A stretch of DNA of 64,000 bases from a virus: UHGV virus genome UHGV-1378817; one strand, written 5' to 3'. The notes under the pieces are model-generated. The model made no database searches and was not told the DNA's origin. It saw nothing but the letters and a program-made list of their open reading frames with translations. This document shows, one piece after another, positions 43,340 through 60,240 of this stretch. Position 1 is the first letter of the stretch, and each line of letters starts with the position of its first letter. The translations under genes and the position numbers were made by a program.

Positions 43340-43567
43340 ATGAGTATAAATGTTGTGCTAATAGGTTACCTGGTAATGTCCGTTATAACAGCGGTATTCT
43401 TGACAGGTGTATGCATCGTGTCCAGACGAAGGGTGAAGTTTGATGATTTTATCACCATCATCACTGCTGCACCTTTTTGGCCTGTTGTTATCTTCATCGT
43501 AATAATGTGCCTAGTTGATTACTACAAGAATATCAGGAAGGAGAGTAGGGATGGAGGCCGCACCTAA
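43340..43567 (+). CDS. small membrane protein (two predicted TM helices)
   Basis: 75 aa; hydrophobic segments VVLIGYLVMSVITAVFLTGVCIV and ITAAPFWPVVIFIVIMCLV. Confidence 0.45.
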   Translation: MSINVVLIGYLVMSVITAVFLTGVCIVSRRRVKFDDFITIITAAPFWPVVIFIVIMCLVDYYKNIRKESRDGGRT

Positions 43568-43786
43568 AACTATCTATACTGTTCTTAAAGAGATTGCGTT
43601 CTACGCAGATCTTAGCCAGGCACCTTTATGGGAAAAGAGCATGTATTTAAAATGGTGCGTTAATTTAGGGAGACCTTCCAGTGTTTCAAGCCATGTTTAT
43701 TGAGATGCTATCTGGGATATTGTTACTGGTAGCCATCTTAGGTGGTGCAGTTCTGATGTATAACTATCTTGAAAAAGGAGACAGCA

Positions 43787-43972
43787 ATGGTAAAAAATAA
43801 ATCTTTAGAGCAGGCTGAAAACCTTCTCCACGAGCTGGTAAAGGAGTGGAAAGTTGAATACTCAGATTTTAATGCACGAGAGGGTGAAGATTATTGGCCT
43901 ACGGAGCGCTCAGAGGGCGAATGGTATCAAGATTTTATAGAGTGGTTATATCAGACGTGCGATGAGGGGTGA
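43787..43972 (+). CDS. hypothetical protein
   Basis: ATG 43787 with AAGGAG SD (track start is upstream TTG). Confidence 0.35.
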   Translation: MVKNKSLEQAENLLHELVKEWKVEYSDFNAREGEDYWPTERSEGEWYQDFIEWLYQTCDEG

Positions 43973-43974: not shown

Positions 43975-44439
43975 ATGTTTGTTAAATATGTAAAAACGTG
44001 CCTCAACAGTCTTGGCAGAGAGCATTGGTACACCTTGCTTGAAAAAGGGGAAATTTTAACAAAATCTGGAAAGATAACTTTGATACCTCTTGATAGTAAA
44101 GGTAAAGACCCGTCACGACTTGTTATAGATGATTACGTTACAGGTGTGACGTTCGAGGTCTCTGTGGAGAGGTTAATACGCAGAGCTGGCGGCCCTTATG
44201 ACCGAAGAGAGTATGTTTTCGATTCCGTTACAGAGATGGGGGAGCATCCGTCTTTAATGTTCAGGATGGTAATCAGAGATATGAGGTCATCTATAGATAG
44301 GATCGTAAAGGACATTAAGGAACCTTTTAGAGTAAAAGTTAAGAAGTTTTTCGATTCTAAGATTAACATACTCGCCGTTGCACTAGGTGTAGTTCAACTT
44401 CTGTTAATTTTGCACTATTTTGAACTACTATTTAAGTAG
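43975..44439 (+). CDS. hypothetical protein
   Basis: ATG 43975 with GAGGGG SD; C-terminal hydrophobic segment. Confidence 0.4.
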   Translation: MFVKYVKTCLNSLGREHWYTLLEKGEILTKSGKITLIPLDSKGKDPSRLVIDDYVTGVTFEVSVERLIRRAGGPYDRREYVFDSVTEMGEHPSLMFRMVIRDMRSSIDRIVKDIKEPFRVKVKKFFDSKINILAVALGVVQLLLILHYFELLFK

Positions 44440-44501
44440 TAGTTGAGATATGGCACAAAGGATGTGCCATAGTGAAATAAACTAAGAAAGAGGTAGAGAG
44501 A

Positions 44502-44849
44502 ATGCCAAAGATTAAAACGTTATTACTGTGGGTAGCTGTTTTAGCTTTTATAGGGTACTGGACTTGGGAAACTGAATTAAAAGATATCGGATATACCAGT
44601 CTTGAGAGCAAGGCGTGCATTGGCATAACCGATGCGTTCAGGCAAAATGCTATGGATCACGAATGTGTTGATGCAGATATAGATGAGAAACTGTCTAAGG
44701 ACAAAGATTTTTACCATGGGCATGCTTTACTTGATAGTGGTGACACTGTAGAGTTCTGGTCGTGGTTTCGTGAAGATGGAACAATAAAAACAGCAGTAAA
44801 GATCTCTAACAAAGAGTTAATGCTGTTGCAGCAAAAGGAGGCTCAATGA
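44502..44849 (+). CDS. membrane-anchored hypothetical protein
   Basis: N-terminal TM (LLLWVAVLAFIGYW); 115 aa. Confidence 0.4.
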   Translation: MPKIKTLLLWVAVLAFIGYWTWETELKDIGYTSLESKACIGITDAFRQNAMDHECVDADIDEKLSKDKDFYHGHALLDSGDTVEFWSWFREDGTIKTAVKISNKELMLLQQKEAQ

Positions 44850-45133
44850 TCTGGATATCCTATGCTGATGGCACCATGCTGTATACTGCAGGTACCAGAT
44901 ATGAAGTTCAGGAGAACGATAAAAAATTTATCGTAAAAACATTTGACAAGGACGACAACCTTTTGCTAGAATTGACTTACAAGGTTGGAGAGGTATCCAA
45001 TATCCAATTGGATTGTGGTCATAAAGATAATCCACTCAAAAAACCTGGAATAGGCAAGGCTTCAGAAGAACGTTTGTCTCGTATTGCAGAAAGCGTTTCT
45101 ACACAAAAATCTAAGAAGGGGACTAGAAAATGA
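44846..45133 (+). CDS. hypothetical protein
   Basis: 95 aa; ATGA overlap. Confidence 0.4.
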   Translation: MIWISYADGTMLYTAGTRYEVQENDKKFIVKTFDKDDNLLLELTYKVGEVSNIQLDCGHKDNPLKKPGIGKASEERLSRIAESVSTQKSKKGTRK

Positions 45134-45324
45134 AAAACTTACGTTTTAACACTTATTACTACAACACATTAAATGATTTGTACTATATTGTTCGAAGTAA
45201 AAGTCCTGAAACAGTCCTATTCTGCCGTGAACCCTTCAAAGGGGAGGAAGTAGAGTCTGAGATGAATGTTAGCCAAATCACCTCTTTGTTGCTCTCAGGC
45301 GCAATGGAAGAAGTAATATTCTAA
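45130..45324 (+). CDS. hypothetical protein
   Basis: 64 aa; ATGA overlap. Confidence 0.35.
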   Translation: MKNLRFNTYYYNTLNDLYYIVRSKSPETVLFCREPFKGEEVESEMNVSQITSLLLSGAMEEVIF

Positions 45325-45342
45325 ACCAGGCGGGAGGGTTTT

Positions 45343-45528
45343 ATGAAGCACTATTGCCTGTCTGGTAGAATGGGTGCAGATTGTGATTGGGTTTTCTTAA
45401 AACTTGTCAGCATTCGAGAGTTCATCCCAGAGGAAGAGCAAGAAAGTGAGCTGATGTCATGGATCAACCATTACGGTAACACTTTTCGACATGTTAAGGT
45501 AGAAGAGTTGCCAAGCGAGGCTGATTGA
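45343..45528 (+). CDS. hypothetical protein
   Basis: 61 aa ORF. Confidence 0.35.
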   Translation: MKHYCLSGRMGADCDWVFLKLVSIREFIPEEEQESELMSWINHYGNTFRHVKVEELPSEAD

Positions 45529-45530
45529 CT

Positions 45531-45620
45531 ATGATTGCATCAATATTAACGTTTATGGGTGGCGTGGCATTCGGATTCATTGTTTGCCTGTTTATAGTGA
45601 TTATGTCTATGCGAGGCTGA
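45531..45620 (+). CDS. small hydrophobic peptide (29 aa, single TM)
   Basis: MIASILTFMGGVAFGFIVCLFIVIMSMRG; starts 3 nt after previous stop; below ORF-track cutoff. Confidence 0.3.
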   Translation: MIASILTFMGGVAFGFIVCLFIVIMSMRG

Positions 45621-45623
45621 ATT

Positions 45624-45920
45624 ATGAAACTTTTTGAGTGGTTTAAAAAGTTTAAATATAAAGCTGTAGCCATCGTGCCGTGGTCAATTCAGTGGGTTGA
45701 TGAAGGTGGTCTACCAATACCTGGTGACAAAGATACTGGGTACTGGATTATGATGGAGAACGGGTTTGGAAAGCGAAAGTATACGTGCACAAACTCTACT
45801 CGATCTGCACTTAATAGAGTGCCTGGTTACAAACTTATGGTTGTGTGGAAAATGTCAGGCGTCCCTCCAGCCAATGCTCAATTTCTTACTGACAATCCTA
45901 CCACGGTAGAGGGAGATTGA
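45624..45920 (+). CDS. hypothetical protein
   Basis: 98 aa ORF. Confidence 0.4.
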   Translation: MKLFEWFKKFKYKAVAIVPWSIQWVDEGGLPIPGDKDTGYWIMMENGFGKRKYTCTNSTRSALNRVPGYKLMVVWKMSGVPPANAQFLTDNPTTVEGD

Positions 45921-46204
45921 TAATGAAAAAGATTAACAGTAGTGAAGTCGAGTTTAAACTTGTCGGAAAAGGCACTTACTGGGAAGTTCGTCAAAAGGTA
46001 TATTTGTTCGGTCTTATTCCTTACTGGTCTAAATTCTACTGGGGAGCTAACGAGTGGGGAAGATACGCCACCAAATCAATGGCACTTATTGGTATAGCAG
46101 AGTACATTGCAGCCAGAGATAGGGTTGGAGACACTTATTACTATACTGCGGACGATATTCGTAACAGTGTTTACGTCCCACAACCACCTGATGGAGACCG
46201 TTGA
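45917..46204 (+). CDS. hypothetical protein
   Basis: 95 aa; ATGA overlap. Confidence 0.4.
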   Translation: MIMKKINSSEVEFKLVGKGTYWEVRQKVYLFGLIPYWSKFYWGANEWGRYATKSMALIGIAEYIAARDRVGDTYYYTADDIRNSVYVPQPPDGDR

Positions 46205-46428
46205 TGAAAGTTAAAGTTTTAGATTCAAGCTTCTATATTGGTCAGGAGCCCTTAGTGGGGAAAGTGTTTACTGCTGTCCCTAACGAAGATTACCCCGACC
46301 TTTTAAAAATAAAAGGGGCAGATCTTATTGCCGCTGGTGCATCTCAGGAATGCTTTGACAGTCAGTGGACCTACAACTTTGCCCTAGGTGAGGATGTAGA
46401 GATAGTGGAGGACAATCATGAAGGTTAA
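46201..46428 (+). CDS. small protein, paralog family A
   Basis: MMKVKVL...KGADLIAAGASQE...VEIVED; paralog of 42546 and 46418. Confidence 0.45.
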   Translation: MMKVKVLDSSFYIGQEPLVGKVFTAVPNEDYPDLLKIKGADLIAAGASQECFDSQWTYNFALGEDVEIVEDNHEG

Positions 46429-46672
46429 AATTCTTGATTCTAACGTCTACTTGGGACAATCCTTCCTGAAGGGAAAAGTCGTTCCTGCGGTATACTTTGA
46501 AGGGTTGCCGTGGGATGATCCTGTTCGGCAACATCACAGTTATGTAGGCCACAACGTAGTGTTTATCTTAGGAGCAGACCTGATCACCGCTGGTGCACCT
46601 GAATATTATTTCGGGGAAGAGTCCTATTATGCCTTTGGGGTAGGGTCAGATGCAGATATTGTAGAGCTGTGA
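46418..46672 (+). CDS. small protein, paralog family A
   Basis: MKVKIL...LGADLITAGAPEY...DIVEL. Confidence 0.45.
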   Translation: MKVKILDSNVYLGQSFLKGKVVPAVYFEGLPWDDPVRQHHSYVGHNVVFILGADLITAGAPEYYFGEESYYAFGVGSDADIVEL

Positions 46673-46684
46673 TGGGTAACCGTT

Positions 46685-47083
46685 GTGAAAAATAAACTGT
46701 TCAAAGTTACAATGAAAATTCGCGGAGCTTGGAGCGTAAAGCAAGGGCGTATTCCAGAATTTGAGAAAGACTTCTACGTAGTCTCCACCTCGGAGGAGGC
46801 TGCATGCTGGCAAGCTGGCTATGCCTATGCAAGAACCTGGTACGAAGGATACCAGACTGGGGGCTATGACGGAGAAATTATCAGCAAGAGTGTAGAAGAA
46901 ATTAATGTGTTGACAAGTGAAAAAGTTTTTGTTATAGTGCATCCAGATTCCAGAGTGAAGCATTACTGGAATGCCAGAACAAAAACTTGGACACCGTTTG
47001 CAGATTCTGCTACGCCACTTTTAAACCAGAAAGCTCTTGACTCTGCCCCAAGTTATGGGGTTGTTGAAGAAAAGCTAAACTGA
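46685..47083 (+). CDS. hypothetical protein, paralog family B
   Basis: Paralogous to 48894-49289 (FVIVHPDSRVKHYWNARTKTWTP vs FVMRHPHSNIAYYWDVLNNEWTP); GTG start. Confidence 0.45.
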   Translation: MKNKLFKVTMKIRGAWSVKQGRIPEFEKDFYVVSTSEEAACWQAGYAYARTWYEGYQTGGYDGEIISKSVEEINVLTSEKVFVIVHPDSRVKHYWNARTKTWTPFADSATPLLNQKALDSAPSYGVVEEKLN

Positions 47084-47100
47084 AACAGTGAGGTGCCACT

Positions 47101-47391
47101 ATGATGGATTTAGTTCTGAATATTGATAACGCAGGAGAGCTTAAAGACGATGGTGTAACAAGTATGGACAAACCCTGCTCTGCCGAGGTTGACTCAAAAT
47201 GGACCTACAAGTTTGACGGAGAGATCTTCGCAAATGATGAGAAGGTTGTAGATGCTGCAGCCATTTTGAACGCTTTAGGGTACGACCCTGTGAATTCTTT
47301 GATCAAGGATCCTGTTGAGTTTGCAGAGTATGTTCGAAAAATGGCAGATCTTGCTGTAGATATTTTAAGAACTATCGACAACAAGCTATAA
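47101..47391 (+). CDS. hypothetical protein
   Basis: 96 aa acidic ORF. Confidence 0.4.
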   Translation: MMDLVLNIDNAGELKDDGVTSMDKPCSAEVDSKWTYKFDGEIFANDEKVVDAAAILNALGYDPVNSLIKDPVEFAEYVRKMADLAVDILRTIDNKL

Positions 47392-47396
47392 AACTG

Positions 47397-47425
47397 TTGA
47401 CACAACGCTTCGGCTATAGTATTAT
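47397..47425 (+). promoter_or_regulatory. sigma70-like promoter upstream of hpf-like gene
   Basis: TTGACA, 17-nt spacer, TATTAT. Confidence 0.6.
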
Positions 47426-47474
47426 TGTTTTCAAAGAGAGATAGTTATTCCCTCTTCCTTAAAAGGAACACGTT

Positions 47475-47795
47475 ATGCAAATTGAAATCACTGGCAACAA
47501 TGTAGAAATCACAGAAGGTATGGTATCTTTTATTTCCCGCAAAATGTCCAAGCTGGAGCGTTTACATCCCTCTGTTAACTATGCACGTGTGAGTGTAAAA
47601 GTTGAAAATGATCACCAGGAAGTTATGGCGTTCATTTTTGACAATTCTGGAAAAGAAGTTATTGCCAAGGCTAAAGGCAGTGATGCTTACGAGGCAACTG
47701 ACCGTATGGTAGATGTTGCAGCACGTCAGCTGGCTAAATGCGGTGGAAAGAAAGGTAAGGGGAAAGGCAAAGTAAAGATTGACTTTGGAGAATGA
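47475..47795 (+). CDS. hpf: ribosome hibernation promoting factor / RaiA-like protein
   Basis: N-terminus MQIEITGNNVEITEGM...KLERL...VKVE close to E. coli HPF/RaiA as recalled; Lys/Gly-rich C-terminal tail. Confidence 0.7.
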   Translation: MQIEITGNNVEITEGMVSFISRKMSKLERLHPSVNYARVSVKVENDHQEVMAFIFDNSGKEVIAKAKGSDAYEATDRMVDVAARQLAKCGGKKGKGKGKVKIDFGE

Positions 47796-47804
47796 GGTGC
47801 TACA

Positions 47805-47906
47805 ATGGGTGTGATTAAGAAATTAGTCCCAAATGTAGAGATTGCATGCTTTGAAATTATGTTTGCAATCGCAGTTGTAGTTAATGTGTTAGGTTACGGC
47901 TATTAA
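47805..47906 (+). CDS. small hydrophobic peptide (33 aa)
   Basis: MGVIKKLVPNVEIACFEIMFAIAVVVNVLGYGY; GAGGTG SD; below ORF-track cutoff. Confidence 0.3.
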   Translation: MGVIKKLVPNVEIACFEIMFAIAVVVNVLGYGY

Positions 47907-47932
47907 TATCAAATAATTGAGGAGACCTCTAA

Positions 47933-48202
47933 ATGAAAATTAAATTATTCAAAACTGAGCTGGCAGACAAAAACTGTGGACTGGTTGAAGGCATGATTGT
48001 TGAAGCACAACCAGTGGACTATATGAAGGTGGTTCGTGATGCCCTGGGTGAAGGTTTTGATCTGATGGAGCCAGCTCTGCGAGAAGATGTTATCGAGATG
48101 GCTAAAAAGCACACACCTGAAGGTTTGGTGGTGTTTGTTGCACCGGGTAACGGAGAAGAGTTGATTGTAACTCCTGATGTGTATGAGATTGTAGAGGAAT
48201 AA
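47933..48202 (+). CDS. small protein, paralog family A-like (C-terminal EIVEE)
   Basis: MKIKLFK... N-terminus and ...YEIVEE C-terminus. Confidence 0.4.
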   Translation: MKIKLFKTELADKNCGLVEGMIVEAQPVDYMKVVRDALGEGFDLMEPALREDVIEMAKKHTPEGLVVFVAPGNGEELIVTPDVYEIVEE

Positions 48203-48293
48203 TCCTACTTGGATTAGCATACTTCCTCGATAAGGAAGATCTGTAATTATTTGTGGGAAAGGAATCCCAATCTCTTACCAGAGGTGATACTAT

Positions 48294-48557
48294 ATGATTG
48301 TTTATTTTAAAACTTCAGGTGGATACCCTGATTCTCAAAGTTTGATCGGAAAAACGTGCACAGCATACTCACCTCTTGATGAGGAGGTAAGCGATATTCT
48401 ACGAAATATGTATCGGATTGACCCACAAGAAGCCTTTGATCAAAACCTTGTATTTGTCAAGGGCTCAGACATGAAGTCTTTGGGAGCATTCCCTGAAGCA
48501 GATGATGATGCCGTTTATTCGTTCATGACCCCTTTTGAAGCTATGGTTGTTGGGTGA
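48294..48557 (+). CDS. small protein, family A-like
   Basis: 87 aa; VFVKGSDMKSLGAFPE resembles the family A central motif. Confidence 0.4.
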   Translation: MIVYFKTSGGYPDSQSLIGKTCTAYSPLDEEVSDILRNMYRIDPQEAFDQNLVFVKGSDMKSLGAFPEADDDAVYSFMTPFEAMVVG

Positions 48558-48561
48558 TAAT

Positions 48562-48894
48562 ATGAAAGTACGCTTTATTGGTGAAACAATTCCTGTGCAT
48601 CTCCGGTCTCCTGAGGATTCTGCAGATCTTGCATCTCAAAAGGCGAGAGGTTATGATAAGAAAGTAACCTCAACCGATGTAGTGCTTGAGGCTACCAGTC
48701 TACCTGACCCTGCTGCATTCTTTAATCATTATGGGTACTATTTCAGCAATCTGATGAATATCGGTGAGCTTGTGTTTATCAGTGGTGGAGAGATTGTTAG
48801 CAAGCTTGGCGGCGATCCGGATGTCTTTCATGAAACCTGTCCTTTTGCATTTGTGGTAGGTTCAGATGTGGAAGTTATTGAGGAGGTGCGGTAA
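48562..48894 (+). CDS. hypothetical protein (C-terminal VEVIEE)
   Basis: Start at ATG 48562 (MKVRFIGE...); track 5' extension overlaps upstream gene. Confidence 0.4.
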   Translation: MKVRFIGETIPVHLRSPEDSADLASQKARGYDKKVTSTDVVLEATSLPDPAAFFNHYGYYFSNLMNIGELVFISGGEIVSKLGGDPDVFHETCPFAFVVGSDVEVIEEVR

Positions 48895-49289
48895 TGGTAA
48901 GCCTATACCGTGTTGAGTATAGCTCAGATACTGTATACAACGTAAGAAGCAAAGATCGCAGCGACAGAGTGCAAGAAATGTATGTTCTTGCCGACAGTCC
49001 GTTATCTGCAGCGTTCAAGGCAGGGGCTCTTGCATCTCGTTGGAAATTCGAAGGTGGATCTTTCTATGAAGAAACCCTTGAAGATTCTGTTGTTATTTCT
49101 TCTGTAGAGGTTTCAGATGACTACGAAGGGAAAAAGTTCGTAATGCGGCACCCACACAGCAACATTGCGTACTACTGGGATGTTCTGAACAACGAGTGGA
49201 CCCCAGATCTTCAGAAGGCTACTGTGCTAACACCGTTTTTGGCAGATAAGTTCCCACCAGAAGGTAATTTATCCGCACTGTTTCAGTAA
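48894..49289 (+). CDS. hypothetical protein, paralog family B
   Basis: Paralog of 46685-47083; GAGGAGGTG SD. Confidence 0.45.
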   Translation: MVSLYRVEYSSDTVYNVRSKDRSDRVQEMYVLADSPLSAAFKAGALASRWKFEGGSFYEETLEDSVVISSVEVSDDYEGKKFVMRHPHSNIAYYWDVLNNEWTPDLQKATVLTPFLADKFPPEGNLSALFQ

Positions 49290-49308
49290 TTTTCTTGCAC
49301 ACAGGTGT

Positions 49309-49337
49309 TGACAACGCCAACCCTGTGTGAAATAATA
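49309..49337 (+). promoter_or_regulatory. sigma70-like promoter
   Basis: TTGACA, 17-nt spacer, AATAAT; embedded in inverted repeat CACAGG...CCTGTG. Confidence 0.45.
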
Positions 49338-49365
49338 CCTTCATCTTAACAAGACAGGAGACCGA

Positions 49366-49626
49366 TTGATGAAGATTAAATTGAAAAACCTTGAAACGGC
49401 AGAGATTCAGGACGGTGTTGATTTCCGTTCTAAAGATGGTGACATCTTAGAGGTAAATATTCCAACCTACGAGCTGATTAAAGGTTTTGGCAACGTCCCA
49501 GAGGAAGGTATCGCAGACGTTCTTCTAATGTTAATCGTTAGTGGGACAGTGTTCTTGGGTGAAGGTGAGAACGCTATTGCAATCCCAAGCCATTTTTATG
49601 AAGTAGTTGACGAAGAGGTGCTGTAA
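49366..49626 (+). CDS. small protein, family A-like
   Basis: MMKIKLKNL... N-terminus and ...YEVVDEEVL C-terminus. Confidence 0.4.
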   Translation: MMKIKLKNLETAEIQDGVDFRSKDGDILEVNIPTYELIKGFGNVPEEGIADVLLMLIVSGTVFLGEGENAIAIPSHFYEVVDEEVL

Positions 49627-49977
49627 ATGAAAGTAGAAATTACCGGTTTTGATATTAATATGGTTCCGGAAGATATTTTAGCTAAATTGCCGGAAGGTTT
49701 TGGTAACGGTGTTGTGGTGGATGCTGTTCCTCCTACCAAAGACATTCTGCTGCAGTATGGTGTAGCAGAGGAAGATGTCGATAAAGTTCTTACAATGATG
49801 GCAATCGATCGTGTTGTCGTTGTTAAAGGTCTCGATAATTTTGAGAGTGATCCCCTGATTATTCGTGGAGATGACTACAAAATCATCGATAATGAAGGCC
49901 AAGAGTTCTATGAGCCTTGTGCAGAAGATATTCTTAACTTATTACTGGAAGCAGGTACCGAAGAGGAGGACGAATAA
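49627..49977 (+). CDS. hypothetical acidic protein
   Basis: 116 aa, MKVEITG N-terminus, acidic tail. Confidence 0.4.
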   Translation: MKVEITGFDINMVPEDILAKLPEGFGNGVVVDAVPPTKDILLQYGVAEEDVDKVLTMMAIDRVVVVKGLDNFESDPLIIRGDDYKIIDNEGQEFYEPCAEDILNLLLEAGTEEEDE

Positions 49978-50306
49978 TGAAGATTGACCCGTTACTGAAG
50001 GCTCGTGCAGAAAAAGCGTACACCATTAAGCTGACCAACCTGGTTCCTACTTGTCATCCAGATGTAGGTTGGCCTGAAGGTCTGGTAGAGGGGACTGTAA
50101 CAGCTGCATACCTCCCTAACATCAAATACCTCATGGAGATCTTAGAGATGGATGAGGAAACTGCAGAACAGTTCCAGTTGGACATGAAACAAAGTGGGAC
50201 TCTGGTTATTCACGGGTGGTACAATACTAAAGATGCAGAAGACCCTCTTGTAACTTCTAATCTGGCATATGAAATCTTAGGACCTTTGAACCTGGGGGAA
50301 GACTAA
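49977..50306 (+). CDS. hypothetical protein
   Basis: 109 aa; ATGA overlap. Confidence 0.4.
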   Translation: MKIDPLLKARAEKAYTIKLTNLVPTCHPDVGWPEGLVEGTVTAAYLPNIKYLMEILEMDEETAEQFQLDMKQSGTLVIHGWYNTKDAEDPLVTSNLAYEILGPLNLGED

Positions 50307-50593
50307 TGAAAGATCTGGTTAAGATTAAGATTAAAGATACCAACGGCGAACTCAGCCATTTTGGAATTAATGATGGTGACGAGCTGATCGCACACCTACC
50401 TACCAAGGAAGTTGTAAGCAAAGCAGTTGCCGGAGAAGAAGATGCAATGCAGGCTGCAGGTGTGGATGAAAACTATGTAGCCATGTGTATGTGCCGAGAT
50501 CAGGTTGTTCTGTATAAAGCGTATCGACCAAACGGAGCCACGGAGTGGCTTGTATTCCGACCTGAAGGATATGAAATCCTAGAGGCACTATGA
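50306..50593 (+). CDS. hypothetical protein
   Basis: 95 aa; ATGA overlap. Confidence 0.4.
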   Translation: MKDLVKIKIKDTNGELSHFGINDGDELIAHLPTKEVVSKAVAGEEDAMQAAGVDENYVAMCMCRDQVVLYKAYRPNGATEWLVFRPEGYEILEAL

Positions 50594-50682
50594 TAAATCT
50601 TGCCAAGGTTGCAATGGTCCTGCTAATTATTTGCTGGTCAGTAACCTTAACACTGTGTCTTGTATTTCAGTAAGGTGCTTAT

Positions 50683-50946
50683 ATGAACATCCTGATGTGG
50701 GTTGTAGCAGTGGCGTTTGTTGCATGTTTTTGCTGCTGGGTTGCGGTGAGGATTTCTGTAGCTACCCTTCGGAAGTTGGGGTTCTCAGAGTGGGATATTA
50801 ATATTCTTTCTTTTCGCAATGAAACAATCTCAGCCGCCCTGCTCTGTAAGAAATTCAAGTGGGAACCTTGTGAGGTCATGAGCTATCTAAGAACAGGTGA
50901 TATCCCTGAAAGATTTAAAAAAGTTCTTGACGGCGATGATAAATGA
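50683..50946 (+). CDS. membrane protein (N-terminal TM)
   Basis: 87 aa; MNILMWVVAVAFVACFCCWVAV hydrophobic N-terminus. Confidence 0.4.
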   Translation: MNILMWVVAVAFVACFCCWVAVRISVATLRKLGFSEWDINILSFRNETISAALLCKKFKWEPCEVMSYLRTGDIPERFKKVLDGDDK

Positions 50947-51101
50947 CAGTATAGTGACTAACAAGAGGTGGTGAGTGATTGATTTTACTGAAGCTTTAAT
51001 GATGGCCTTGTCTGTTTTAGCGCTATCGGTGTGTTTTGGGGCGTTATTCACATCTCTGGTTAAAGTTTTACATACAGTATTATTACCCAAGGAGCGCAGT
51101 A

Positions 51102-51353
51102 ATGACGAAGATTGACTTGAATGCTGGCGACCATGTTGTTGTCAAATGCATTGGAGATTATCTTGGATTCACAATCGGCAATACTTACGAAGCGGTAGTG
51201 GCGAAGGTTTATCATGATAAAGTCCTCAGTCTTGTATTTGACTGCGATGATGATGGGGATGACCGATACGTCTGTGAGGTGCTGGCACGAGACGATAGTG
51301 AAGACCAGAAATTCCTGGTTATTGAACTGAACGGTATTTTTGTAGAACGTTAA
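51102..51353 (+). CDS. hypothetical protein
   Basis: ATG 51102 with AAGGAG SD (track start is further upstream). Confidence 0.4.
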   Translation: MTKIDLNAGDHVVVKCIGDYLGFTIGNTYEAVVAKVYHDKVLSLVFDCDDDGDDRYVCEVLARDDSEDQKFLVIELNGIFVER

Positions 51354-51381
51354 TTTAAAACAACATAAGGAGACTCTTACT

Positions 51382-51687
51382 ATGGCTAAATCTAAAGTTG
51401 AACTGTTCACCTCTCTTCCTTCTGACACTGCAGAACGTGATCGCCTTCGCAAAACAATCGAAGAGCTGGTGGAACTCCAGCTTCAGATTAAAGATCTGAA
51501 AGATGCCATCAAGGATATCATTCTCGTTGAGAAGCAGGATCATCTGTATTCTCCTAAATTCATCAAATCTCTGGTGGCTACAGAGTTCGATATTCGCTAT
51601 GAGGCTGAAAAACGTCGCGCTAAAATCGAAGAAGAGGTTGAGCACATGTCTGAGGCAGACATTCTGTTCAAACGCTCTGTAGAATAA
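51382..51687 (+). CDS. hypothetical protein
   Basis: 101 aa helical ORF. Confidence 0.4.
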   Translation: MAKSKVELFTSLPSDTAERDRLRKTIEELVELQLQIKDLKDAIKDIILVEKQDHLYSPKFIKSLVATEFDIRYEAEKRRAKIEEEVEHMSEADILFKRSVE

Positions 51688-51692
51688 TGACA

Positions 51693-51725
51693 AAGAGAGG
51701 GGCCTGGGCCCCTCTTTCACTATTT
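51693..51725 (+). terminator. intrinsic terminator-like hairpin
   Basis: AGAGGGGCC-tgg-GCCCCTCT followed by TTCACTATTT, directly after 51687 stop. Confidence 0.5.
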
Positions 51726-51741
51726 GCAAAAGGAACCAGCT

Positions 51742-52068
51742 ATGAGAATGCCAATCACTGTGAAAGAGCTAAATGAACGTGATGCAGGTGGTCTATGGCC
51801 TGCACGAAAAATCCGCTGCGTCTATATGAAAGAGAATCTTGAACATCTTGATCAACAGATCAAGGTCGGTGATATTTTTGAGGTCTTCTATTCCAATCGT
51901 CGTAACTGGGAAACCATTCAGCCTTCTGGTTTTGTTCTTGCCAAACTTGACACTGGAGAAGTGATTATCCCTGGGTTGGATATTGTCTTCGAAATTATCC
52001 AGGAGTGGGATCCGGATAAGATTAGATACGAAGAATTATTCGGTAAAGGTATTATCAAACCTGTGTGA
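51742..52068 (+). CDS. hypothetical protein
   Basis: ATG 51742 with AAGGA SD. Confidence 0.4.
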   Translation: MRMPITVKELNERDAGGLWPARKIRCVYMKENLEHLDQQIKVGDIFEVFYSNRRNWETIQPSGFVLAKLDTGEVIIPGLDIVFEIIQEWDPDKIRYEELFGKGIIKPV

Positions 52069-52076
52069 GGTGGATT

Positions 52077-52376
52077 ATGTCTACAAAGGCGGCTAAATAC
52101 TCCTACATGCCATCAACCTCTGCAGAGGTAGACTTTAGTTTCGATGTGTTTCCACTGTTTGAGGCGGTTCTGGCATACCCAACAATACTATCTACTCCTG
52201 AATCACTTGTGCCTGTTAAGTTGCAGAACGCTATGCATTCTATGCACTACAACAATAAATGTAGGCACAGATGGTGTCAGGACGAGGAAAAAGATTTGGA
52301 CAGTTTGAGAGATTTTGACAGTCACCTTTTGACACCTTTCAGCTACTCCAACCTTGATAAGCCCTCATGGGTATAG
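52077..52376 (+). CDS. hypothetical protein
   Basis: ATG 52077 with GAGGTGG SD. Confidence 0.4.
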   Translation: MSTKAAKYSYMPSTSAEVDFSFDVFPLFEAVLAYPTILSTPESLVPVKLQNAMHSMHYNNKCRHRWCQDEEKDLDSLRDFDSHLLTPFSYSNLDKPSWV

Positions 52377-52531
52377 CAAAATATCAAATTTAAGACACCT
52401 AGGACGCTCTGTGGCGTCCTTTTCTTTATCTGGTGCACGATTGCATACCTTGGACAGGTAATCTCATTATAGAGCGCTTTAGAAAGAATTTGACTGTTTT
52501 CCTAAACCACCAACATCTTGAGGTATCATTT

Positions 52532-52753
52532 ATGAAAATTGTTCTATACGACGATAACGATATTGCTCTCAGTACTGTATATTTTGAAGATGATGATCTG
52601 CCAGATTTTCTACGTGTCTCCACATTTGCTGCAGAATACGGTGTGAGCCGTCAGGCAATGCATAAGTACCGAGAGTATCAGAATTGCTCATGGGCTGAGA
52701 CCTTTATGCACTTTATCCAACGTAAGCAGGCTCTGGACCGCAAAAAGCTTTAA
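52532..52753 (+). CDS. hypothetical protein
   Basis: ATG 52532 with GAGGT SD (track start is far upstream). Confidence 0.4.
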   Translation: MKIVLYDDNDIALSTVYFEDDDLPDFLRVSTFAAEYGVSRQAMHKYREYQNCSWAETFMHFIQRKQALDRKKL

Positions 52754-52853
52754 GTGTATATACTTTTTATTTCGAGCGTAGCGAGAACGCACGTCCGTTT
52801 TGACCCAAATCACCATACGCTCGGATTTTAACCAAACCCTCGCGGCGTTTCTG

Positions 52854-52882
52854 TTGACACATTACCGCTCTCGTGATAGTAT
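52854..52882 (+). promoter_or_regulatory. sigma70-like promoter
   Basis: TTGACA, 17-nt spacer, TAGTAT. Confidence 0.5.
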
Positions 52883-52902
52883 CCACACATCGTTTGGAGA
52901 AT

Positions 52903-53004
52903 ATGGGATACACAATGAGAACATTGTCCGAAGTTTTAGTGGTGATCCTGATGATCATTACGTCCATAGCGGCTGTTGCCGGAATACTCACGGGTGGAAC
53001 ATGA
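52903..53004 (+). CDS. small membrane peptide (33 aa)
   Basis: MGYTMRTLSEVLVVILMIITSIAAVAGILTGGT; GGAGA SD; ATGA overlap with next ORF; below ORF-track cutoff. Confidence 0.35.
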   Translation: MGYTMRTLSEVLVVILMIITSIAAVAGILTGGT

Positions 53005-53213
53005 TCAACACGCATGCATCTGAAGAGACATCTGAAGGAGTGACCATATGTCCATTGGCTGATCCAGTGAAAGGGGAAAACTTCGATTCTGAAGATTCTC
53101 CATCTTCGCTCCAGATAGATCCTGAGGCTGATGACTTGACGTGGGGAGACATCGTAGATATCTGGTTCTCTATTATGCCTGAGCACGAAGAGTTCAGAGG
53201 TGGTAGACTATGA
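53001..53213 (+). CDS. hypothetical acidic protein
   Basis: ATG 53001 overlapping stop of the small TM ORF; the track ORF 52800-53213 begins upstream of the promoter so was trimmed. Confidence 0.35.
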   Translation: MINTHASEETSEGVTICPLADPVKGENFDSEDSPSSLQIDPEADDLTWGDIVDIWFSIMPEHEEFRGGRL

Positions 53214-53334
53214 AGCACCGAGCCCACACAGGTTCCTCATGCTAAAGCATGGCCTGAAGAGGCAAACGTGCATAATTCCCGTGCATTGGAACGTATAAAA
53301 CCCTGTTCACACTCTCATTTCCAGAGGAGATTTC

Positions 53335-53550
53335 ATGAAGATAGAAATATTTGGTGGGGCTGACAACACTCGTGGCCTGATTTACCTTGAATTTGATGAA
53401 TCATACCTGCCAGAGGTGTTAAATATAGACTCTGTTGCTGAGGCTTTGGGAGTAAACCCTAAAGAACTCCACTCTTGTGCTGAGATCGATGGTTGGGAAG
53501 AGACCATGAACATTGATTTCAGTGAAGTAGAGGACGAACCGCTGGACTGA
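53335..53550 (+). CDS. hypothetical acidic protein
   Basis: 71 aa; MKIEIFGG N-terminus; last plus-strand gene before non-coding region. Confidence 0.4.
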   Translation: MKIEIFGGADNTRGLIYLEFDESYLPEVLNIDSVAEALGVNPKELHSCAEIDGWEETMNIDFSEVEDEPLD

Positions 53551-53679
53551 CACACAATTAGCTGCCCGGCTAAAGTGCTGGAAGCGCACCTATAACACAT
53601 CTTTCAACTAAATTTCCTACCACCACAATCACTTACCTCCAACACATGACTGTTTGCTTGTTTAGTGAGCAGTCATGCC

Positions 53680-53707
53680 TTGACATTCTTGCCTATCCTG
53701 ATAAAAT
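53680..53707 (+). promoter_or_regulatory. sigma70-like promoter firing into ORF-poor region
   Basis: TTGACA, 16-nt spacer, TAAAAT; no convincing ORF downstream. Confidence 0.4.
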
Positions 53708-55021
53708 TAAGTTCTTCTCTTTTCTTTTACCGAGTAATTCGGGTTTTCTGTTCTCTTCGGTTTGAAGGGGTATGGAGATACACCTGAGTGAACAGGGTGA
53801 ACAACCGAACCATTGGCTATGGCATTAGCATGGCGAAGCGGACGGGTGACGAAAGAGGGGCCGGAGGACACCAGTCACTGCCATATGATATATGGGTGAT
53901 AACCTGAAGAGTCTGAATAAGTGTTTAAGTACCAGTCAGAGGAAAAGGTGAATGGTAGCCGAAGGGGGAGGGGGGTTTCTTGTATCTTTAATTTGTATAT
54001 TATGTATACACTTGTAAACCAATATCATCTAGATCTGTTTACCACACAAAGTGGATAGAGACAAATATTACCTATTAAACTTGAATTATTTATAGAAAAT
54101 ACCACAACACCACTTAAGTCTTTGATTTTACACACAAATCTTACAGATATTCAACCTCCATATTTAACATACCTGTAACATATTCCATACTCTACCTGCC
54201 TGATCAATTTCCCCAACTACATCCCTCATATTTCCCCTGTCTGTACTACCCTGCCCCACCGGGAGTCCCGTCATATCTGGCTTTCCAGCAAATATCACAC
54301 CCACAAATATCATGCCTGAAGAGGGTTTCATCCCATAATACCTGCCTTGCCTGAAGAGCGCTTCATACACCACGTAAATTTTTTAATTGACCTCCCCTGC
54401 CCCGCCGGAGAGGTTGGCTTTTCCCACACAGACCTGAAGAGTCAGCCAGAAATATCTGAATAGGCCCAGTTCTACCACGATTTTGACCTGACCTACAGGA
54501 GCGCTGCCAGGCGGACGAAATGGGAATACTTCTCATTCTTATAACAATTCTCAAATATCGAGGCAGTGAGGCAAATTAATAGGCCAGGCCGTTCACACAG
54601 TGGCACAACATTTGCAACCTATCTTGTGGGGGTGAATGAGAATACCTATCATTGTGAGAACCATTATCATTACGGGCAATTTAACATAATACCCATTATG
54701 CGCACCACTGGTGATACATACAGGGATTGATAACACGAGTTACAGTTTACGCATATAACAATCATATTTCTTACTATTTGTGTGGGATATAGTTAGCAGC
54801 CGATAGATTAGATATTGACCTGTGGACTTCCAACCGTCTAGACGTCTAAGCGCCCACACAACAAGGCTTATACATACATTACTGAATGTAAACAGGGCCG
54901 CAAAAATGCTACCATACCAGTTTGTAAATTTTCATGCAGCACTTGACAAAGAGGAGGAAAACTTGTCTGACACAATGTCACACAATATGACACAATAACG
55001 GCTGTTACCATTCCATATCTC

Positions 55022-55077
55022 ACTGTTTACGCATAGACTGTTTACGCCTGGATAGTTTACACCTTGACAGTTTACAC
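55022..55077. repeat. four direct iteron-like repeats with exact 15-bp periodicity (ACTGTTTACGC x2, ATAGTTTACAC, ACAGTTTACAC)
   Basis: Repeat starts at 55022, 55037, 55052, 55067; further copies of the core at 54742-54752 and 55493-55502. Confidence 0.7.
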
Positions 55078-55150
55078 AGATATGATAAGCCATGACATTC
55101 GTTTGCATGAAAACAATTAGCAAGTTAACAATTAACAAGTTAATAATATA

Positions 55151-55303
55151 TGACATAATATAAAAGCAGGGCAACTATTAGAAGATCTATAGTTGCCTTG
55201 CTTGTTATGTCATGATTAACTAAATACAAGGCAACTATGATCTGATTAATAGTTTGCAGACAAACTATCACGGGGGTGATGGTTACTGCTTTTATATTAT
55301 GTC
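55151..55303. repeat. ~150-bp element bounded by perfect 18-bp inverted repeats, containing internal GGCAACTAT palindromes
   Basis: Left arm GACATAATATAAAAGCAG (55152-55169), right arm CTGCTTTTATATTATGTC (55286-55303); inside, GGCAACTAT-N10-ATAGTTGCC. Confidence 0.6.
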
Positions 55304-55946
55304 GCGACTCCGTCGCGCCATGCCATTCGTTTGCATAGTTGCCTTATTGTTACAGATAAAATAATTGTATTGTTAATTATTTCTTATCTTTCTATTAGTC
55401 ATCTAATGATTCCGGTTAGTATAGTAACGTACAGTAAACATTAGACGACTAAATATTTCTATGTTTATGATAACCTATCGTGACAATTCCGGACTGTTTA
55501 CGAAAAATGTTGACACCTGAGCTGATTTATGTTATGCAATTTAAACGAATAATTATTTTATGCAGGTATTGACTATTCCGTTATTCTATGGTTGGAATAA
55601 ATACTTAGCAAGCTATAGAATGGTGAGCGTACGTAAATTCTGAGATTTGTCGGCTATAGTTATACTCGATTTTTCACGTAGAACACGCTTTTTGGTTTGT
55701 GTAAGTGTATGACTTATAAAGATTTTTAGTTGTTGACAAGATATTGAAGATGTGCATCAGGTTAAATTTTGTGCAATAGCTGCATTACGTGCAATTTTGG
55801 AAGGAAAACTGGTAAAAATAGCACCGATACCACACAATGAAAGGTTATGCAATAGCTATTTTATATGTATATTTGTACAGTGTGCAGGATTGATGGCTCG
55901 TCAATTATTCCACTTGCCAGGTAGGGCCGTTTATGGTAGGGGAAGA

Positions 55947-55977
55947 GCAGACAAAAAGAAAGGGGCCTAAGCCCCTT
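55947..55977 (-). terminator. intrinsic terminator closing the minus-strand gene block
   Basis: AGGGGC-ctaa-GCCCCT hairpin followed on minus strand by TCTTTTTGT, about 20 nt after stop of 55996-56415. Confidence 0.6.
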
Positions 55978-55995
55978 GATAATTCAGTTAAAAAA

Positions 55996-56415
55996 TTATA
56001 ATGATTCGTATATTTCAAAAATCCGATTTGCCAGGTCGTTACGGTAGCGGAATTTTTCCTCACGTTTGATCATCAGATCTTTAAAGCCGTATTCTTTAAG
56101 CACTTCATTAACTTTATGGCGGCATACCTTCATATTATCTTGAGCGTCACCAATAAACTTGTTGCTGTGGTGCATTGCTTTAATTTCTTCTTCCAGGACC
56201 AGGGCAACTACCCGTACCGGATCAAGCTGGTAGGCGGTAACATCGATGCGGCATTGTAGACGGCTTTTAACGTCTGCCACCGGATATACTGCAACCTCTT
56301 CCCCGTCAACATTGACAATAATTAGTTTACCATCGATTTCGAATCCTTTCGCCGCCGGACCGTGACAAAAAGCGTTATCAAAGCTATATGCCGGATTATT
56401 AGATTTAATGTTCAT
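55996..56415 (-). CDS. hypothetical protein
   Basis: 139 aa ORF with own promoter and terminator. Confidence 0.45.
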   Translation of the reverse strand: MNIKSNNPAYSFDNAFCHGPAAKGFEIDGKLIIVNVDGEEVAVYPVADVKSRLQCRIDVTAYQLDPVRVVALVLEEEIKAMHHSNKFIGDAQDNMKVCRHKVNEVLKEYGFKDLMIKREEKFRYRNDLANRIFEIYESL

Positions 56416-56464
56416 GGTGTTTTTACCTCTTAGTTAATTTTCTTACAACTTCCCTTCAAAAAAG

Positions 56465-56493
56465 AATATAGCAAAACTGCCGATCCCTGTCAA
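56465..56493 (-). promoter_or_regulatory. sigma70-like promoter (minus strand)
   Basis: On minus strand TTGACA, 17-nt spacer, TATATT; upstream of 55996-56415. Confidence 0.55.
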
Positions 56494-56559
56494 CCAAGGA
56501 TGGCATAATTTTTATGTGATCAAGGGGCTTTATTGCCCCTGACCATGTAACTTGTTGTA

Positions 56560-56823
56560 TTATTTGTTATTCATCCAGTTTTCCCAAGCTGCCTGATAAT
56601 CTGCCTCACTGCGGCGGATCTCTTCTTGCTCTTCAAGCCGGATCTCTTCTTCTAGGTACCCCAAGATATCGGCTTTTTTGGTCTGGCGTAACATCCAATC
56701 ATCTTTTTTACGGGTAAAGATCTTATATGCTTTCTCGCAAACCTCTTTTTTGCTACCTTTTTGGACTTCAAGAACTTTGTAGGCCATGTACTGAACTAGT
56801 TTGAGCTGATCAAGACGTTTCAT
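56560..56823 (-). CDS. hypothetical protein
   Basis: 87 aa charged ORF. Confidence 0.4.
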   Translation of the reverse strand: MKRLDQLKLVQYMAYKVLEVQKGSKKEVCEKAYKIFTRKKDDWMLRQTKKADILGYLEEEIRLEEQEEIRRSEADYQAAWENWMNNK

Positions 56824-56886
56824 GATGTTTACCTCTTTATGGGGTTCTGGTTTGGTGTGGGCCTTTTGGCCCGTGTCATTATCTTA

Positions 56887-57159
56887 TTACTTACGGCGGC
56901 AAAATTCAAGTGTTTTTAATTGATAATCTTCCTCAGCTTGGAGTACAACCGCCTCGATCATTTCGTTGGCATTGGTGAAGCCATACCCTTGAGCGAACTC
57001 ATCCGCGCCACCTTCGTGATCATGTTCTGCGTTCATCGCTTCCACAAAATGGAATTCAAGATTATTGAGGTAAGGGCTTGATGTTCCGTCCTCTTTTTCG
57101 ATGAGATCCCAGATAGCATTAAAACGTGATTCGACTTCTTGATTAATCCAGCTTGACAT
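56887..57159 (-). CDS. hypothetical acidic protein
   Basis: 90 aa ORF. Confidence 0.4.
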   Translation of the reverse strand: MSSWINQEVESRFNAIWDLIEKEDGTSSPYLNNLEFHFVEAMNAEHDHEGGADEFAQGYGFTNANEMIEAVVLQAEEDYQLKTLEFCRRK

Positions 57160-57321
57160 AATGTTTTCCTCTCTTCTGGTTGTTGTGTGGGCACTTTTGC
57201 CCCTTCAAGATAAATGATACCCCCACCACCTGGCAGATGTCAACGGTTTTTATAGTTTTTTATATAACAGGCACCCCCGGTGATTGTCTCCCCCCGTCGC
57301 CAGGTGCCTGCCGTGAAACAA

Positions 57322-57356
57322 GTATAACAAAAAACAGGACCATTGCAAGCCCTGTT
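57322..57356 (-). terminator. intrinsic terminator
   Basis: AACAGGGC-ttgcaatgg-TCCTGTT hairpin followed on minus strand by TTTTTGTTAT, after stop of 57373-57564. Confidence 0.55.
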
Positions 57357-57372
57357 TTGTAGTTTATAAATA

Positions 57373-57564
57373 TTATATTTTTTCGCCTATGTAGTCCGGT
57401 CGGTTTTTCTCTGTCATGCGCTTTAGCAATTCTTGCATGTTGCTTATGGCTTGTAGTGTATCCCCTTCCAGGCTTGAATCGACATAATCAGGATCGTCTA
57501 TGACCTTTCTATGATTATGATAACGCAGTACCGCCAATACCTTTCTAACTTGTTCGATATTCAT
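57373..57564 (-). CDS. hypothetical protein
   Basis: 63 aa ORF. Confidence 0.4.
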   Translation of the reverse strand: MNIEQVRKVLAVLRYHNHRKVIDDPDYVDSSLEGDTLQAISNMQELLKRMTEKNRPDYIGEKI

Positions 57565-57713
57565 TTTTACCGCTCTTTAAAACAAGGTGCCAACCGTTTC
57601 CAATAGATCACTAACTATCAGGACAATACTGATCAGCACATATCTAACCATAAGGGGAAAGAGCGCCAGCGATCCCGCCACAATCCCCAAGGTGATGATT
57701 ATCTTTCTCATGG

Positions 57714-57998
57714 TTAACGGTTTACGTAAGTTTTCCCGTTCACGGTTATGGGCAGATCCTCCAGGTCTGGATCTTCCTTAAGGTCGCGAGCAAGCTCACC
57801 GCACCGGATACCCTCGAATCCGTAGTACTCTGTCGTGCCGTCCTTAAAAGTTTTAGCGGCAAGGCATAAGCGATAAGTAACCCCGATTCGATTGACGGCA
57901 TGAATATCCGTTAGATTAACCTCTTTTGCCAGCTCTTTAGCCATTACAGGCGCATTAAGTCCAACAACCAGGGCAACCACTGCGATCATCTTTTTCAT
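57714..57998 (-). CDS. secreted/periplasmic small protein
   Basis: 94 aa; signal-peptide-like N-terminus MKKMIAVVALVVGLNAPVMA. Confidence 0.45.
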   Translation of the reverse strand: MKKMIAVVALVVGLNAPVMAKELAKEVNLTDIHAVNRIGVTYRLCLAAKTFKDGTTEYYGFEGIRCGELARDLKEDPDLEDLPITVNGKTYVNR

Positions 57999-58305: not shown

Positions 58306-58314
58306 TTGCCAACC

Positions 58315-60199: not shown

Positions 60200-60240
60200 T
60201 CCTTGTTAACTGCGTGTTATTTTACCACGATTAAAATTTA

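Follow-up and report, generated by a model that had tools for sequence, protein, structure and literature searches.

Phage T4 produces two small early membrane proteins, Imm and Sp, that exclude superinfecting phage. Another early small phage membrane protein, PhiNM1 Gp11, binds MurG and DivIC (PMC11237401), and bacteria themselves encode inner-membrane proteins of 50 amino acids (aa) or fewer with one transmembrane (TM) helix, e.g. AcrZ, MgrB, KdpF and YohP (PMC12648545, PMC7549839), small bacterial membrane proteins being known to bind larger complexes (PMC12648545). Here we describe five very short open reading frames (ORFs), p1 to p5, in UHGV virus genome UHGV-1378817, of which a stretch of 64,000 nucleotides (nt), referred to below as the window, was analysed. 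All five are within that size class, with one predicted TM helix and little else, and they were found exactly where the original prediction had placed them, on both strands (Table 1). The reading that we favour, and consider rather probable, is that their products are very small single-pass inner-membrane proteins acting as intramembrane binders that modulate or exclude their partners. They have in common with the AcrZ/MgrB/KdpF/YohP class their size, a single conserved helix, the near absence of a soluble domain and a presumed binding to a larger membrane protein, but they are phage-encoded, confined to one genus and unrelated in sequence. With PhiNM1 Gp11 they would share membership of a set of small phage genes (probably early in the case of the peptides), embedding in the membrane and a plausible role in takeover or exclusion, again without homology, while Imm and Sp exceed twice the length of the peptides and are likewise not homologous.

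Five small membrane-peptide genes and their conservation

The identity of the phage was addressed by megablast of positions 44000–62000 against 50,697 phage records. Matches were found in 299 records, 90 of them with ≥80% query coverage at 91–97% identity, and nearly all matches were Escherichia phages of the genus Vequintavirus (rV5-like myoviruses of ~136 kb), the closest being SophiaRose (95.9% identity) and AlexBoehm (95.3%). Judged by these matches, the window is that of an rV5-like coliphage of this genus.

Each of p1–p5 contains one 17-residue segment with a mean Kyte-Doolittle hydropathy of 2.4–2.8, and a crude insertion free-energy sum over 19 residues gives −3.6 to +2.1 for the five as compared with at least +13 for soluble neighbours; these sums are indicative only, and p2 and p5 come out as marginal owing to the two Glu within each helix. 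On both measures the single-TM character originally claimed holds, with one strongly hydrophobic helix per ORF. p1 is practically a bare helix whose sole charge is an Arg at the C-terminus, and p2–p5 consist of a short K/R-bearing N-terminus, a helix of ~20 residues, often with an acidic residue at its start, and a C-terminus of 3–6 residues that are mostly small or polar. The C-termini of the five (SMRG, GYGY, TGGT, SSNGIG and VSN) carry at most one charge, the Arg of SMRG. That p1–p5 could be chance ORFs in intergenic DNA, hydrophobic merely through T-rich composition, might be argued from their shortness, from the fact that several records omit them and from the weak Shine-Dalgarno (SD) sequence of p4. 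However, in a census of ATG ORFs of 25–45 aa, in which hydropathy ≥2.3 was scored as hydrophobic, 8 of 81 ORFs on the coding strand qualified, as opposed to none of the 109 antisense ones (Fisher p = 9e-4), and hydrophobic members made up 7 of the 17 coding-strand ORFs lying in gaps between larger genes but only 1 of the 64 embedded in other frames (p = 4e-5). This result, together with an omega of ~0.2 in the named frame against ~1 in the others (see below) and frames that are intact in 72–120 genomes, makes a chance origin barely credible.

Selection was assessed by comparing the homologous region of nine GenBank relatives and of IMG/VR contigs, including a divergent 137-kb relative (L005/L006, 76–87% DNA identity); IMG/VR scans with two neighbouring proteins yielded five loci, and the GenBank relatives were used instead. 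Distinct substitutions were counted per alignment column in all three frames, with up to 10 genomes per ORF, the window included. With the five ORFs taken together, the counts are 43 synonymous and 28 nonsynonymous substitutions on 119 and 373 sites, respectively, and omega is 0.21 (binomial p = 7.7e-11), as opposed to 0.96 and 1.11 in the two alternative frames (pooled over nine small ORFs). Nei-Gojobori dN/dS values against L005/L006 are 0.25 for p2, 0.24 for p3 and 0.23 for p5, and range from 0.05 to 0.38 for the additional small TM ORFs described below. In p5, the helix LEIIALEILLGVGMYFIA is nearly invariant over 16 sequences and the basic N-terminus varies, even gaining a codon, and the final 24 residues of p2 recur without an amino-acid change in the divergent L005, with just two synonymous changes there. 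By these counts the five ORFs are genuine protein-coding genes that evolve under purifying selection in the named frame only. A lack of conservation in related genomes, which the original prediction had allowed would speak against it, is not what was found, since the frames are kept in relatives and selection on them is frame-specific.

Start signals are in line with this. Anti-SD duplex energies (in kcal/mol) are −7.6 for p1, −6.9 for p2, −5.2/−6.4 for p3, −2.9 for p4 and −10.7 for p5, against a median of −6.8 for 92 long genes and of −2.2 for random ATGs, which places four of the five within the long-gene range, as had been claimed for most of them, and leaves p4 weak. The start/stop overlaps with neighbours that had also been reported exist for p3, whose stop shares an ATGA with the start of a downstream 70-aa acidic gene (53001–53213), and for p5, whose ATG overlaps the stop of the upstream ORF in the same manner; p1 and p2 are merely tightly packed, with gaps of 2–9 nt to their neighbours. 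The p1 segment (45517–45620) has the form of a mini-gene cassette that duplicates an intercistronic junction. It is carried on a 96-nt indel flanked by a 10-bp direct repeat, GCGAGGCTGA, that includes an SD and a stop codon, and it is cleanly absent in phage Murica and in L005, where the flanking genes are joined by an ATGA overlap.

Such arrangements bring into play an explanation in which at least p1 and p3 are translational-coupling or leader ORFs that set the translation of the next gene, the peptide itself being incidental. It would fit the position of p3, the first cistron behind its own promoter with a stop overlapping the next start, and that of p1, whose 3′ end holds the SD of the next gene within the duplicated junction. 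Nevertheless, we regard it as unlikely because selection on p3 and p1 acts at the amino-acid level (Table 1), the hydrophobic character is retained in the divergent relative, and Murica and L005 couple the genes flanking p1 directly without it. The structure of the p3 locus deserves a further comment. Only the second of its two ATGs exists in the divergent relative, and both PHROG 34195 and the L005 protein start there. In rV5, a 101-aa ORF162 with a GTG start has been called in another frame across p3 (52915–53213 in the window, 9373–9678 in contig L013). Substitutions divide into 9 synonymous and 2 nonsynonymous in the p3 frame as compared with 4 and 7 in that of ORF162, which argues that p3 followed by the 70-aa gene starting at 53001 is likely the true structure, rather than ORF162.

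The distribution of each peptide was determined by tblastn against the same 50,697 records. Out of a total of ~120 Vequintavirus records, p2, p3 and p5 are found in 114–120, and p1 and p4 do not occur in a quarter to a third of genomes. No copy of p1–p5 was detected in these records outside Vequintavirus or its mislabelled equivalents, the few matches below 60% identity not being significant. In 24 GenBank records (MG0656xx) named 'Campylobacter phage', with C. jejuni as host, the region is ~95% identical and the small ORFs are present too; a wrong label or contamination by rV5-like coliphages is the probable explanation. In the diverged p4 allele of nimi (MLEKIFTVVVVGLALSVGWVATMANMILSSHGIG) and L007, the C-terminal half ATMANMILSSHGIG is kept and the N-terminal half is different. 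Beyond the phage records, a word-index search of 5.8 billion clustered proteins with the 40-aa allele of p5 returned 15 clusters of 39–40 aa, all rV5-like, and where these had long contigs the contigs measured ~110–139 kb; p2, compared exhaustively with 1.84 billion representatives by phmmer, retrieved its own cluster and one spurious match only. As far as these searches reach, the peptides are restricted to the rV5-like lineage, p2, p3 and p5 being near-core and p1 and p4 accessory.

That the peptides were 'unannotated' is true of the ORF track from which the original prediction was made, and many records leave p1, and sometimes others, uncalled, but it does not apply to public annotation at large, where most of them have been present since 2013. 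Kropinski et al. (2013, PMC3606486) scanned the rV5 proteome for TM domains and list as 'membrane protein, 1 TMD' in their Table S3 gp145 (33 aa, i.e. p2), gp181 (39 aa, i.e. p5), gp173 (46 aa, i.e. p4 with an N-terminal extension) and also gp131, gp156 and gp170, which are three of the additional ORFs. The rV5 genes for gp145, gp173 and gp181 are the same as p2, p4 and p5 (90–100% identical) with no biological difference, the disparities with the window being that p1 is not annotated in rV5 and that the p3 region is called there as ORF162. All five are annotated as hypothetical proteins in the BASEL phage AlexBoehm, p2–p5 are annotated with ribosome-binding sites in Murica, and p1 is also annotated in NHEP1. 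PHROG families matched over their full length are phrog_15151 for p2 (E = 3.7e-26), PHROG 34195 for p3 (E = 4.3e-21, residues 5–33), phrog_14631 for p4 (E = 1.8e-22) and phrog_13629 for p5 (E = 3.8e-32), all labelled as of unknown function, and p1 has only a weak match to phrog_6302 (E = 0.0038). What the present comparison adds is frame-specific evidence that the five and at least four more ORFs are real genes, a distinction between core and accessory peptides and the correction of two probable mis-annotations. Paralogy among the small peptides, including an E-I-x3-hydrophobic-E-I pattern common to p2 and p5, was considered and found unconvincing, local alignments giving z ≤4.1 against composition shuffles over 45 pairs.

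Table 1. Positions and properties of the small membrane-peptide genes, lysis genes and regulatory sites in the window (syn./nonsyn., distinct synonymous and nonsynonymous substitutions; TMD, transmembrane domain)
Feature	Position	Strand	Description	Syn./nonsyn.	Omega	Phage records	Distribution
p1	45531-45620	+	29 aa, MIASILTFMGGVAFGFIVCLFIVIMSMRG, nearly all one TM helix	5/4	0.24	~91	accessory; 6/8 compared loci
p2 (= rV5 gp145)	47805-47906	+	33 aa, MGVIKKLVPNVEIACFEIMFAIAVVVNVLGYGY, single TM with two intramembrane Glu	5/6	0.34	118	near-core; all ≥90% identical
p3	52903-53004	+	33 aa, MGYTMRTLSEVLVVILMIITSIAAVAGILTGGT, single TM; second ATG at 52915 gives 29 aa	9/2	0.08	114	near-core; replaced in NHEP1
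p4 (= core of rV5 gp173)	58315-58419	-	34 aa, MKQKLIDAVILVIALGIGLIATMANVILSSNGIG, single TM	5/4	0.27	72 + diverged allele	accessory, allelic
p5 (= rV5 gp181)	60622-60741	-	39 aa, MTTKDKPRTDKARRVMVWLEIIALEILLGVGMYFIAVSN, basic N-terminus, invariant TM helix	19/12	0.19	~120	near-core
rV5 gp131 homologue	43693-43800	+	35 aa (35-39 aa), single TM, charged C-terminus; downstream of gp129-type putative holin				
Extra hydrophobic ORF	50590-50673	+	27 aa		0.32		
rV5 gp156 homologue	50975-51115	+	46 aa, GTG start, single TM, behind promoter P156				
rV5 gp170 homologue	57577-57711	-	44-aa membrane peptide				
Alternative-frame ORF	60725-60850	-	41 aa, MDRTTAEIIFLVMCVVIGLLGVIVDRVTTTRRKGGDDDNQG, TM helix and charged tail; overlaps ORF182				
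rV5 P144	47397-47425	+	sigma70-consensus promoter; precedes hpf-p2 operon				
rV5 P162	52854-52882	+	sigma70-consensus promoter, TTGACA, 17 nt, TAGTAT, extended -10 TG; just upstream of p3				
rV5 t181	60600-60616	-	intrinsic terminator directly after p5				conserved in all relatives
Endolysin (rV5 gp89 homologue)	20390-20860	+	without N-terminal hydrophobic segment				
Spanin pair (rV5 genes 66, 67)	9647-10329	-	adjoins terminase large-subunit gene				
i-spanin	9931-10329	-	member of spanin pair				
o-spanin	9647-9934	-	lipoprotein, member of spanin pair				
gp129 homologue	43340-43567	+	holin candidate, 75 aa, two TMDs, K/R-rich tail				
gp183 homologue	60961-61332	-	holin candidate, 123 aa, two N-terminal TMDs; first gene of operon ending in p5				

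Operon context and a possible mode of action

A consensus scan found 59 promoter-like sites in the window, as against 40.7 ± 7.2 in shuffles, with 13 of them matching at least 10 of 12 positions, and 32 terminator-like sites against 13.7 ± 3.8. Among these predicted sites are several that have also been listed for rV5, namely the promoters P144, P156, P162 and P174 and the terminator t181. The hexamers of P144, P156, P162 and P174 are conserved in the alignments, and for P156 and P162 neither the −35 nor the −10 hexamer changes even in L005/L006, where the spacers diverge, which is the footprint expected of function. Four of the peptides can be placed in operons accordingly, p2 as the second gene of the P144 operon, p3 as the first cistron behind P162, p4 as the second gene after P174 and p5 as the last gene of the gp183-ORF182 operon; P156 precedes a 46-aa TM gene. 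The gene ahead of p2 (47475–47795, + strand) codes for a homologue of the ribosome hibernation factor HPF/RaiA and has a consensus sigma70 promoter before it. In all relatives examined, p2 follows this gene by 9 nt, and the two may be linked functionally. Since these conserved near-consensus sigma70 promoters drive the arrays, the peptides are probably early genes made by the host RNA polymerase, in agreement with other authors working on Vequintavirinae, who take promoters of this kind, where they occur in arrays of small genus-specific genes, to mark a likely early region. Sixteen matches to the late-promoter motif described in the rV5 paper, TGGTAAAATA, were found with at most one mismatch, and none lies usefully upstream of the peptides or of the holin candidates discussed below.

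Taken together with the small-ORF census, in which at least four further small TM ORFs missed by the original prediction bring the set to at least nine genes, this outlines a model in which nine small TM genes, scattered through two arrays of small genus-specific genes that converge on 53.6–56.0 kb, would be transcribed from sigma70 promoters and their products synthesized early by the host RNA polymerase. p2–p5 would insert as single-pass proteins with the N-terminus inside and the C-terminus outside, because each has a K/R-bearing N-terminus, often an acidic helix start, ~20 hydrophobic residues and a tiny polar C-terminus. In the absence of any soluble domain the helix is presumably the only functional surface, and the near-invariant helix of p2 and p5, with its intramembrane Glu (E12 and E17 in p2, E20 and E25 in p5) and, in p5, a GxG motif, suggests a specific helix–helix contact rather than a generic anchor. 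The peptide would then bind a host or phage membrane protein inside the membrane, modulating or blocking it, for the purpose of host takeover or of superinfection exclusion.

A quite different outcome of membrane insertion has to be weighed here. With their 29–39 aa and one hydrophobic helix, the peptides resemble in size and composition the type I toxins (TisB, Hok, Ldr, Ibs and ShoB), and they could be membrane-depolarising toxic peptides of the TisB, Hok or Ibs type that shut down or kill the host, an idea to which the charged residues inside the helices of p2 and p5 lend some support. However, an early loss of membrane potential would starve phage replication, Pfam and NCBIfam scans show no similarity to any toxin family, and near-invariant TM sequences speak for a specific partner over generic membrane damage. 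In addition, the peptide genes, which have SD sequences, are members of sense polycistronic operons and not of toxin/antisense-RNA loci, no sequence match to these toxins exists, and an antisense-RNA arrangement was not seen, though no search was made for one. Toxicity is for these reasons an unlikely explanation.

Several considerations weigh against intramembrane binding, nevertheless. The within-genus sample is shallow, with 9–31 substitutions per ORF, so that individual omega values are imprecise, and the unusual conservation of synonymous sites in p2 may point to an overlapping nucleic-acid constraint. Searches of PHROG, Pfam, NCBIfam, the 5.8 billion proteins and the 1.84 billion representatives yielded no homologue of known function. 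The early timing is read from predicted promoters only, and the rV5 authors say that such promoters occur throughout the genome (PMC3606486). Literature searches found no published transcriptome, Ribo-seq, proteomic, knock-down or lysis-assay data on these genes; a CRISPRi-ART study knocked down only capsid and rII genes in the rV5-like phage EdH4, which it did not screen genome-wide, a paper on 'ASEC2201 holins' had no bearing on the question, and the mass-spectrometry data for rV5 cover virion proteins only (PMC3606486). As they stand, these are ordinary examples of a recognised, poorly understood class of single-helix membrane proteins, the residual novelty lying in the partners of the invariant helices and in the unsettled holin of the genus. 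A partner of the p2 or p5 helix, if found, could expose a new target of host takeover.

Lysis genes and the holin question

Holins such as lambda S105, the S21 pinholin and T4 T are, like p1–p5, small phage membrane proteins with a TM helix, but even the smallest classical holins known are roughly twice their size. Having noticed no holin next to the endolysin, the original prediction suggested that one of the peptides might supply it. The holin of the genus is indeed unsettled, being described as still to be identified in the LL12 note, and the endolysin of the window would need one because it has no N-terminal hydrophobic segment. Two published candidates in the window had been overlooked, however, the gp129 homologue, which was proposed as the holin in the rV5 paper (PMC3606486), and the gp183 homologue, whose counterparts are labelled 'putative holin' in BASEL phages; both were named from TM prediction alone. 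The gp129-type protein is fast-evolving (116 records, 54–99% identity) and the gp183 type occurs in 119 records (>90% identity). Breadth of conservation was considered as a guide to the true holin and set aside, the two types being as genus-restricted as the peptides, so that it does not discriminate.

Could one of the peptides, then, be the missing holin or antiholin of rV5-like phages, triggering the holes that free the soluble endolysin? Apart from the unsettled state of the genus holin and the nature of the endolysin, the idea can draw on p5, which closes the operon opened by the BASEL 'putative holin', and on p3, which has two in-frame ATGs four codons apart and a weak match to holin_phiLC3 (E = 0.099; 12.9 bits, far below the cutoff of 39.7). 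Yet the divergent relative has only the second of these ATGs, and neither scans of Pfam and NCBIfam with E values of up to 1 allowed, in which nothing exceeded the cutoff and no meaningful family appeared, nor the PHROGs gave a significant holin-family match for any peptide. According to the rV5 paper, holins usually have two or three TMDs and a hydrophilic, highly charged C-terminus (PMC3606486), whereas the peptides have a single TMD and end without a charged tail. They lie at 45.5–60.7 kb, 25–40 kb away from the endolysin and spanin genes, although linkage of a holin to these is common rather than universal. Moreover, they stand behind conserved sigma70-consensus promoters, and p1 and p4 are dispensable, many genomes lacking them or having something else in their place, a misfit for an essential lysis gene.

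On balance the evidence does not support the proposal that one peptide is the holin. The role is disfavoured for the core peptides p2, p3 and p5, hole formation of the holin type is unlikely as the function of the set, and we consider a holin or antiholin among the peptides very unlikely overall, what likelihood there is being concentrated on p5, because of its operon with gp183, and on the 35-aa ORF by gp129. A variant in which at least one core small peptide is part of a Vequintavirus holin/antiholin system, the best placed being p5 with the 41-aa TM ORF and gp183, and the 35-aa ORF by the gp129-type gene, seems highly improbable; were it true, it would provide a holin-type protein smaller than any other known from tailed phages, and a lysis system split among several mini-membrane proteins. 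The analysis does supply ranked membrane-protein candidates for a holin search in rV5-like phages, whose genus finds wide use in phage therapy and typing. Directly after the endolysin lies a 68-aa ORF (20924–21130, + strand; rV5 gp90, phrog_4641) with an N-terminal hydrophobic segment, a possible lipobox FMAAC and an acidic remainder, and its product could be a lipoprotein.

Further small membrane genes and neighbouring features

Among the additional small TM ORFs (Table 1), the gp131-type ORF is separated from the gp129-type gene by an ORF130 homologue, and its dN/dS against L005 is 0.05. The ORF at 50590–50673 has no PHROG match, and at the corresponding place L005 has a 26-aa hydrophobic ORF of diverged sequence. 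In a more distant rV5-like relative, the 136-kb IMG/VR contig L008, six consecutive overlapping hydrophobic ORFs of 28–45 aa occupy positions 15244–16001 (− strand) and share no sequence relation with the peptides of the window. It thus seems that phages of this group generally tend to carry runs of mini membrane-peptide genes.

A possible addition to the set overlaps ORF182, which is annotated between gp183 and p5 (60738–60983, − strand). Its 5′ part is constrained in the annotated frame (omega 0.29), but its 3′ part is neutral in that frame (0.98) as compared with 0.46 in the overlapping frame of 41 aa, which is open in 10 of 10 sequences compared. Only seldom is this overlapping ORF annotated, phage Gotham and a few metagenomes being cases in which it is. 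Six contigs encode an 85-aa protein in which the N-terminal part of ORF182 is naturally fused in frame to the TM tail, with the junction at a T5 run near 60822–60826. The 41-aa frame may be either an unannotated overlapping gene or part of a product joined by +1 frameshifting, and it strengthens the view of 60622–61332 as a small membrane-protein operon.

Other features of the window can be listed briefly. Between 46201 and 50593 (+ strand) there is a series of small acidic proteins, many of which start with MK[IV]K and end in acidic motifs like V(E/D)(I/V)VE; with the small TM ORFs scattered among them, they have the look of a family of paralogues. As judged by GC skew and the ORF map, genes are on the minus strand from 1 to 16 kb, on the plus strand from 16 to 53.6 kb and on the minus strand again from 56 kb, which agrees with the transcription units and the 'non-coding' box of the rV5 paper (PMC3606486). 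The 2.4 kb in which the two arrays converge (53600–55996) are without ORFs and AT-richer (GC 0.38), and contain about five copies of an iteron-like motif, ACTGTTTACGC, at 54742–55082 and 55493, and an 18-nt perfect inverted repeat (55152–55169/55286–55303). Several deposited genomes start or stop near 54968, and the region looks like an origin or terminus. Finally, a tRNA cluster includes a 99-nt tRNA-like gene (10996–11094, − strand) for which ARAGORN calls a four-base anticodon, atcc, and the Rfam tRNA model scores 35.5 bits; it would be either an unusual tRNA or a tRNA with an insertion.

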